From the sequence record OR670062.1: 37,572 bases of DNA. One strand, written 5' to 3'. The notes beneath the pieces were generated by a model. That model made no database searches and was not told where the DNA came from. It saw nothing but the letters and a program-made list of their open reading frames with translations. This document shows, piece by piece, positions 13,573 to 13,980 of this stretch. Source of the stretch: Escherichia phage SKA5. How positions within the stretch are numbered: the first letter of the stretch is position 1; every line of letters starts with the position of its first letter. A program made the translations under genes and the position numbers.

Positions 13573-13606
13573 TAGCGTTGTGGTGAATGCGGCTCAGCGC
13601 ACGCGG
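13573..13606 (+). repeat. nut-like element, copy B (conserved 20-mer plus short hairpin)
   Basis: TTAGCGTTGTGGTGAATGCG (19/20 identical to copy A) followed by a TGCG-GCTCAG-CGCA hairpin. Confidence 0.4.
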
Positions 13607-13980
13607 GTTAAGGTTGAGGCTGACAGTCGACCTTCTGTGGATACCCACCCGCCTGGTGTGCAACCTTCGCCAGGCACCGGGAGGCACCCGGCACCACAAC
13701 TTTATGCTGTGTGTAGTCTTGGCGGTACCAGCTTGTATCCTTGCTTCCGGCTGGTACCGCTCTTTTTACAAAACAGAGAAGAGCATCACCGGACGACGGG
13801 CTCATAACCCAATCCATCCGGGCGGCAGTCACCGCAGGTGTTCTTCTCTGTTTTGTGGAGAAACTAACCGCCCCTACGGGGGCATTCATGGAAATGTAAT
13901 TGACTCAATAATCGCCGGACGGTGAGGGCTTCCTTTTACCCGAATTCAGCGCGGTGCAGCGCATATACGTGGAGAACAAA

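Follow-up and report, generated by a model that had tools for sequence, protein, structure and literature searches.

To our knowledge, STnc100/PasD is known only as a family of Hfq-associated small RNAs, and its function is unknown. Eleven STnc100 copies are transcribed in EDL933, where STnc100_4 was shown by Northern blot and several copies have high ribosome-footprint coverage (PMC5331693, Table 1). PasD1 and PasD2 have been characterized by Northern blot, by their Hfq-dependent stability, and by targets from RIL-seq (PMC8550237), and PasD has been reported as a structural homologue of STnc100 (bioRxiv 10.64898/2026.05.13.724894). Another small RNA of prophage operons, DicF, is processed by RNases III and E in the Qin operon (bioRxiv 10.1101/2023.04.14.536235). 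Here we describe an RNA locus within positions 13573-13980 of a 37,572-nt stretch of Escherichia phage SKA5 (OR670062.1), all of which is called the window below. The locus is a real, conserved structured RNA. Judging by its sequence and predicted helices, its first domain is a divergent, unannotated relative of STnc100/PasD in a different operon context. What is new is a supported pseudoknot and, beside the known family, a second structured element that had not been described.

The first domain consists of the following parts:

13577-13700, + strand: domain 1, the STnc100/PasD-family core (124 nt), identified with Rfam, our covariance model R1, and covariation
13577-13585 with 13692-13700, + strand: P0, the closing helix
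13582-13588, + strand: the invariant GGUGAAU
13589-13593 with 13599-13604, + strand: P1, with A13601 bulged
13610-13616 (AAGGUUG) with 13661-13667 (CAACCUU), + strand: the pseudoknot, whose second strand lies inside the P4 loop
13617-13650, + strand: variable region
13651-13656 with 13670-13675, + strand: P4
13677-13681 with 13687-13691, + strand: P5, with loop AGGCA

An initial annotation of the window, made from its letters and a list of open reading frames (ORFs), had noticed several nested inverted repeats here and proposed a structured non-coding RNA. Every repeat it listed is present on the + strand, 1 to 8 nt from where it had been placed:

13577-13585, + strand: GTTGTGGTG, 5' strand of the closing helix (initially placed at 13576)
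13692-13700, + strand: CACCACAAC, 3' strand of the closing helix (initially placed at 13692)
13651 and 13670, + strand: GCCTGG and CCAGGC (initially given no position)
13677 and 13687, + strand: CCGGG and CCCGG (initially given no position)
13722-13732 and 13750-13760, + strand: GCGGTACCAGC and GCTGGTACCGC (initially about 13720-13757)
13761-13767, + strand: TCTTTTT (initially described as following that hairpin)
13773 and 13842, + strand: ACAGAGAAGA and TCTTCTCTGT (initially about 13765-13847)

Both domains of the locus are predicted to fold better than all of their shuffled counterparts (13572-13772, z = -3.3, with 0/200 shuffles folding as well; 13762-13900, z = -7.6, again 0/200). The initial annotation could not name the RNA and had proposed an Rfam scan; at gathering thresholds Rfam found nothing for the locus. 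In a permissive scan, 13547-13769 matched STnc100 (RF02076) at 45.2 bits (E = 1.9e-8) across model positions 1-206 of 206, a full-length match for domain 1 whose score lies 1.8 bits under the gathering score of 47 bits. To gather relatives, we looked for the invariant 19-mer CCGGGAGGCACCCGGCACC in IMG/VR; at least 120 loci carry it, and we built the covariance model R1 from 38 aligned representatives with helices P0, P1, P4, and P5. With filters off, R1 finds exactly one copy in the window, at 13574-13705, with a score of 77.8 bits that is partly a matter of construction because the window sequence is in the seed alignment; the same search of the window gave no second copy of the core on the PR side or the - strand. 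In total, R1 finds 124 copies (107 distinct) in 91 sources. Relatives outside the seed scored 79 bits (ST64B), 77 bits (phiES15), and 69.4 bits (Qin), with lower values for Kp4866-6 (30.5 bits), LLS (27.4 bits), and mEp460 (23.8 bits).

Pairing in domain 1 is maintained by compensatory changes. In the alignment, 94.2% of cells are paired, compared with 78.4% in shuffles (0/500 reach the observed value) and 42-48% when partners are slid. Changes on both sides are seen in six of the eight pairs of P0, four of the five pairs of P1, and all six pairs of P4. P5 is invariant in the 91-source set, partly because of the search pattern used, and it covaries in more distant relatives (CCUGG/CCAGG in Qin, GGUGG/CCACC in Kp4866-6 and LLS) around a fixed AGGCA loop. 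The helices thus covary while the nucleotides of the junction and loop (GGUGAAU, and the AGGCA loop with its GGAG) stay fixed. G-U pairs far outnumber A-C pairs (112 vs 39), and the RNA is therefore read from the + strand. The invariant P5 loop region GGGAGGCA (13679-13686) contains a Shine-Dalgarno-like GGAGG, and GGAG is kept where the P5 stem covaries (Qin, Kp4866-6, LLS, mEp460).

The pseudoknot, which the initial annotation had overlooked, joins the 6-9 nt after P1 to the P4 loop and is absent from the structure line of the Rfam STnc100 model. Its mean best helix is 6.44, compared with 4.18 +/- 0.11 in a partner-swap control. The pairings themselves differ among relatives (CCAGUC/GACUGG, AUCAGCA/UGCUGAU, CUGGUGU/ACACCGG, AGACUGACA/UGUCAGUCU), and the AAGGUUG/CAACCUU of the window is replaced by a compensated AAGGCUG/CAGCCUU in its close relative phiES15. 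The pseudoknot strand AAGGUUGA (13610-13617) can also pair locally with UCGACCUU (13627-13634), and the minimum-free-energy fold picks this local helix. It is weaker in ST64B and absent in phiES15, and may be an alternative conformation or an accident.

The locus has been annotated as protein-coding in several genomes: as YmfH in K-12, and as a hypothetical protein or YfdP-like elsewhere. The initial annotation called the region ORF-poor, which is mistaken, as the + strand carries ORFs of 75, 112, and 52 aa, one in each frame, and the - strand one of 93 aa. It also called the region GC-rich; at 56% GC compared with 51% for the window, the elevation is real but mild. The 112-aa ORF (13587-13925) is intact in most near-identical homologues, and RefSeq annotates ymfH or hypothetical proteins, both of which would favour a coding function. 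Against this, open frames occur in all three + frames as well as on the - strand, and no one frame is conserved. The 112-aa ORF is truncated in three near-identical homologues among our collected loci (L094, L113, L124), is marked as frameshifted by RefSeq in strain 141, and has no Pfam or NCBIfam match; in e14 ("ymfH") and in L038, a locus with 77% identity, the longest ORF lies in another frame. SfV and ST64B have no annotation over the locus, and the ymfH literature held nothing relevant among the matches listed. Among members of the family, insertions and deletions in the variable region vary freely in length and are not multiples of three, and paired compensatory changes occur as well. 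We therefore give next to no credence to a protein-coding region, and the annotated genes over the locus, K-12 ymfH included, are almost certainly not real, as far as sequence comparison can tell. The covariation and the lack of a conserved frame, two checks that the initial annotation had called for, support its preference for a structured RNA over protein-coding DNA.

Immediately 3' of the core are two further features:

13705-13720, + strand: linker UGCUGUGUGUAGUCUU, a single-stranded, conserved 16-mer and candidate seed
13722-13767, + strand: intrinsic terminator T1, with an 11-bp stem (GCGGUACCAGC/GCUGGUACCGC), a 17-nt loop, and then UCUUUUU

The linker, also overlooked initially, is unpaired or weakly paired in the minimum-free-energy fold and nearly invariant in 19 close homologues. 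Its core, GCUGUGUG(U/A)AGUCUU, is shared by the window, SfV, e14, ST64B, L038, Kp4866-6, LLS, and phiES15, although the terminator stems of these lineages differ in sequence. A fixed linker beside a freely varying terminator is the signature of a seed. T1 was missed by our terminator scan because its loop exceeds 8 nt. Counting as a terminator any hairpin with a U-run no more than 110 nt from the core, we found one after 12 of 17 copies of the type seen in the window (PL-type, after the early-left promoter) and after 70 of 93 canonical STnc100 copies. T1 is likely the 3' end of a small RNA.

Beyond T1 lies the second domain:

13762-13862, + strand: domain 2, a stem of ~25 bp that includes the T1 U-tract and is capped by a three-way junction
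13768-13782 with 13842-13856, + strand: perfect 15-bp core of the domain 2 stem, from a repeat search
13789-13821, + strand: hairpin A, which carries GGGCUCAUAACCC at 13798-13810
13822-13835, + strand: hairpin B, part of the domain 2 cap
13870-13883, + strand: small hairpin GCCCCUACGGGGGC at a mosaic junction, flagged as terminator-like on the - strand

The initial annotation had treated these repeats as a second domain of one RNA. The repeats are real, but they belong to a separate, independently distributed module: Stx2c, cdtI, and mEp460 phages carry T1 and domain 2 without domain 1. A pattern scan found 73 distinct homologues of domain 2, in which the 34 consensus pairs are 97.9% paired (92.9 +/- 0.26 when shuffled), nine pairs have changed on both sides, and G-U pairs are numerous on the + strand. 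The permissive Rfam scan gave no match for domain 2. Because its stem begins in the T1 U-tract, domain 2 could form only in transcripts that read through T1. Stems of 20-25 bp with conserved small irregularities are typical of RNase III substrates. Domain 2 may thus be a processing element of the RNase III type, or a structural element, of read-through transcripts; the main texts of two studies of RNase III cleavage in K-12 (PMC6212723, PMC5371410) contain nothing on the e14 hairpin.

In SfV-type phages, an extra ~1.3 kb separates domain 2 from the leader of the yfdR-like gene, and 13870-13881 aligns on either side of it. Within hairpin A, the apical GGGCUCAUAACCC hairpin, with its three G-C pairs and CUCAUAA loop, is one that we take to match exactly the anticodon stem-loop of initiator tRNA-fMet from E. 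coli. Most homologues keep it; ST64B and Kp4866-6 have CUCAUUA, and e14 has GGGUUAAUAACCC. The likeness could be chance or mimicry.

By sequence comparison, the SKA5 window is an SfV/SfII/e14/ST64B-like lambdoid prophage. Over the 491 nt around the locus, identity is 97-98% with Shigella phages SfII and SfV as well as several E. coli phages, 79% with Salmonella ST64B, and 77% with Cronobacter phiES15. Upstream of the locus is an immunity region:

11849-12046, - strand: Cro/DicC-like gene adjoining the repressor gene, from domain matches
12142-12795, + strand: repressor with helix-turn-helix and S24 peptidase domains, from domain matches, with its own terminator 3' of the gene
12858-12920, + strand: PL-like early-left promoter region, with TTGACA at 12882-12887, an 18-nt spacer, and TACATT at 12906-12911
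12922-13007, + strand: "copy A", the 5' 86 nt of a truncated mEp460-type paralogue of the core, from identity to the mEp460 locus (L125)

The PL-like promoter matched 10/12 positions in our promoter scan. Two copies of an operator palindrome, ATGTAGGATAnCCAACAT, flank or overlap it (12858-12876 and 12893-12911); these repeats also occur in the cro/cI intergenic region, and an inverted repeat of 40 nt forms a mirror image of the PR side. We infer that TTGACA-18-TACATT (12882-12911) is PL and, from this arrangement, that it is likely the source of transcription into the RNA locus ~650 nt downstream. PL is followed by a ymfJ-like ORF (+ strand), a convergent ymfI-like ORF (- strand), the RNA locus, and a yfdR-like 5'-deoxynucleotidase gene that begins at 13981. 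Between the RNA element and the start of the ymfI-like gene is a terminator-like hairpin on the - strand (13504-13523), which would halt antisense transcription arriving from the right.

The predicted PL start is 2-4 nt ahead of copy A, which retains the 5' strand of P0, GGUGAAU, and the first hairpin (GCGCA-GGCUGA-UGCGC), and was not scored as a full copy by R1. In mEp460 the element continues through a P5-like hairpin and CACCACAAC to the T1 and domain 2 also seen in the window. Over a stretch of 20 nt, copy A is 95% identical to the intact copy that lies 655 nt downstream ("copy B"). The two flank the ymfJ/ymfI-like cassette, which cuts off copy A and looks like an insertion. The initial annotation had taken this repeat for a pair of nut-like sites, and it does resemble the lambda nut site (boxA/boxB) in that a short motif recurs close to where the early-left transcript starts, with a hairpin after it. 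The difference is that it forms the 5' strand of a 9-bp closing helix in two paralogous RNAs of ~125-140 nt. Since copy A is the 5' part of an mEp460-type element, the repeat is the 5' end that two paralogous RNAs have in common, and "nut-like copy B" is the closing-helix strand with the invariant GGUGAAU, not a nut site. We rejected a nut/N system, as there is no PR-side copy and no N-like ORF was seen after PL, where a ymfJ-like ORF comes first and none of the tested ORFs matched a family, though no search dedicated to N was made.

This 20-nt identity, together with the position of the element, T1, domain 2, and the small hairpin, all at mosaic boundaries, would also suit repeats that act as DNA, either as recombination linkers between modules or as protein-binding palindromes. 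The compensatory changes keep pairing and not sequence, the excess of G-U over A-C pairs points to a single transcribed strand, and the pseudoknot has no counterpart in duplex DNA. We consider such a role for the DNA itself extremely unlikely.

The relatives fall into two settings. PL-type copies have P1 = GCGGC...GC(A)CGC and sit downstream of a repressor gene on the same strand, as in the window, five other collected loci (L008, L022, L038, L044, L096), ST64B, LLS, Kp4866-6, phiES15, mEp460, and e14. In this group, the Rfam STnc100 model scores phiES15, ST64B, and Qin at 34-41 bits, under the threshold of 47, and leaves e14, mEp460, Kp4866-6, and LLS unmatched at E <= 0.001. Canonical copies score 57-78 bits with Rfam and lie between Q-like and holin/endolysin genes, often as 2-5 tandem units. 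Some directly follow a TTGAMA-N17-TAAATT promoter, and in most the core is followed by a linker of ~15-35 nt and a terminator. Strict sigma-70 criteria caught a promoter in only 25 of 110 copies, so that what we say of promoters in the family is qualitative; the common Stx-phage type seems to start ~30-45 nt upstream of P0. In tandem canonical arrays the units are ~250 nt apart, each with a terminator (L071 at 4376-5465 and 8376-8521, and L024, L033, L014, and L120), and the L071 array contains an isrI match (60 bits). HK639 (L251) has a canonical copy at 44807-44928 (90.3 bits), among four annotated terminators from Q to the holin gene.

E. coli K-12 carries an intact copy as well as a decayed one. 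The core in Qin is intact (NC_000913 1649451-1649586; L236 2952-3087), scores 69.4 bits with R1, and has no annotated feature; the dicF terminator ends 16 nt before it, and dicB follows after 22 nt. The e14 copy, under ymfH (L003 3576-3706), is decayed (60.5 bits) with a damaged P5. Among 5426 complete E. coli genomes, 2788 match part of the 491-nt region and 678 match at least 80%; the genome copies listed are annotated as a hypothetical protein, as ymfH, or not at all.

Our preferred reading, which we think probable, is that the locus encodes a DicF-like, operon-embedded, Hfq-type small RNA of ~190 nt that ends at T1, with the domain 2 hairpin as its processing site. When the repressor leaves PL (12882-12911), RNA polymerase would reach the element by way of copy A and the ymfJ-like ORF, and the core would fold and probably protect or define the 5' end. 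Many transcripts would stop at T1, giving a stable RNA whose linker would pair in trans with target mRNAs while Hfq occupied the terminator. Read-through of T1 would produce the domain 2 hairpin, probably cut by RNase III, which would free the small RNA from the yfdR-like mRNA. DicF, made comparably in the dicBF operon of Qin, would be the parallel.

Several observations weigh against this small RNA. There is no site complementary to the linker with three or fewer mismatches within the window. The window copy has no sigma-70-like promoter of its own on the + strand between 12912 and 13577; upstream of it are a weak -10-like GAGAAT (13564-13569) and, in place of a -10/-35 pair, the CUC(U)C-CGUUGUGGUG shared by window-type copies. 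As no promoter lies directly upstream, a 5' processing step must be assumed. The elaborate, invariant, pseudoknotted core exceeds what a small RNA built of a seed and a terminator needs. Five of the 17 PL-type copies lack a terminator, and the core in Qin is directly followed by dicB, which together suggest that the core has a role of its own. Finally, the genes downstream would need a way past T1.

The main rival reading is that the core works chiefly in cis, as a structural module that phage operons use again and again, with seed and terminator as optional additions. It could then be a processing or "punctuation" site (a substrate of RNase P or RNase E, for example), a 5' stabilizer, or a site where a protein or the ribosome binds. 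P0 and P5 have one continuous 3' strand (8 + 5 bp), as do the acceptor and T arms of tRNA; GGUGAAU and the GGAG-bearing AGGCA loop are fixed while the helices covary; the core stands without a terminator directly before dicB in Qin, and also in L008, L022, and L075; window-type copies have no promoter of their own; and the ribosome footprints on several EDL933 copies cited above would fit as well. However, ARAGORN finds 0 tRNA or tmRNA (transfer-messenger RNA) genes in the window, in line with the initial annotation, which had seen no signature of either; the P5 loop has 5 nt and is no T-loop; and no CCA follows. Most members of the family are autonomous units of RNA and terminator that accumulate as small RNAs, some with a recognizable promoter, and the proposed partner is hypothetical. 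On balance we find a mainly cis-acting core possible but unlikely.

A bolder version makes the core itself the functional RNA: it could be bound by RNA polymerase, the ribosome, or a nuclease, or could serve as a processing element or ribozyme, with domain 2 as a second partner element. The features of such a module would be the fixed GGUGAAU junction, the GGAG P5 loop, the pseudoknot from loop to linker, and the coaxial stack resembling acceptor and T arms. We regard this role as doubtful, and distinctly unlikely. If it is correct, phages place the core at the heads of read-through operons, at PL in the window and Qin and in the Q-lysis region elsewhere.

A more specific proposal is that the nascent core acts like a put site, binding RNA polymerase as a processive antiterminator and so letting it pass T1 and the terminators beyond. 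The element has PL on one side and on the other a strong terminator that is followed by genes including, in e14, xis and int; it occupies a place analogous to that of putL in HK022 and HK639 (PMC9378689); and no N-like gene was seen after PL (in a survey that, again, was not a dedicated search). On the other hand, R1 finds nothing at putL or putR of HK022 or at putL of HK639, and placed side by side the sequences show no resemblance. HK639 has its own put as well as a separate canonical STnc100 copy in its late region, the core in Qin lies downstream of the dicF terminator, and the family terminates 15-35 nt after the core and accumulates as terminated RNAs (PMC5331693). We judge antitermination by the core very unlikely.

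The PL-type branch of STnc100/PasD escapes the Rfam threshold, and because it lies in a repressor-controlled early operon, the RNA would arise on prophage induction and not in the quiescent lysogen. A pseudoknot and an invariant junction are unusual for a small RNA that acts by base pairing, which suggests a second function. Phages with no apparent N would have to get through a terminator between PL and the early-left genes (xis and int in e14). The K-12 reference genome holds a decayed copy as ymfH and an intact, unannotated one in Qin.

Compared with known systems, the arrangement recalls the lambda 6S (PR'-tR') RNA and StxS, which are short terminated transcripts made where an operon dependent on read-through begins. 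Those RNAs start at PR' and their read-through depends on Q, whereas the operon in the window starts at PL and no antiterminator is known for it. With the put sites of HK022 and HK639 the locus shares a structured RNA soon after PL in a lambdoid phage in which no N-like gene has been found. Those sites differ in being a pair of stem-loops of ~70 nt (GAACGGC...GGUCAAGGAUGA) unrelated in sequence to the window element, which is 650 nt from PL and whose family terminates right after the core.

DicF (RF00039) is likewise a small RNA within a repressor-controlled early-left operon with DicA/DicC-type immunity, and its terminator stem is partly similar (GGCGGUA(C/U)CAG). The 3' end of DicF is reportedly generated by termination, as the title of Faubladier et al. 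1990 has it. The order of parts differs, as the core in Qin follows the DicF terminator while the core in the window precedes T1. The window element is not itself a DicF: it scores 21.8 bits against a gathering score of 48 (76.7 for the true dicF), only its terminator stem is similar, and the DicF seed is absent.

The closest match is to STnc100/PasD. Both are found in enterobacterial lambdoid prophages and have the same order of parts: closing helix, GGUGAAU, P1, P4, the CCGGG-AGGCA-CCCGG hairpin, and then a linker and an intrinsic terminator. The STnc100 consensus helices, with GGUGAAU and CACCGGGAGGCACCCGGCACC, are all present in register in the window, and T1 stands in the place of the STnc100 terminator. 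Expression as a discrete, Hfq-binding RNA of ~160-210 nt has been shown for relatives (PMC5331693, PMC8550237). The window copy differs in its swapped P1 (GCGGC...GC(A)CGC vs CCCCC...GG(A)GGG), in a seed and terminator that are unlike those of STnc100, in having no promoter of its own that we recognize, and in its place in the PL early operon rather than the Q-lysis region.

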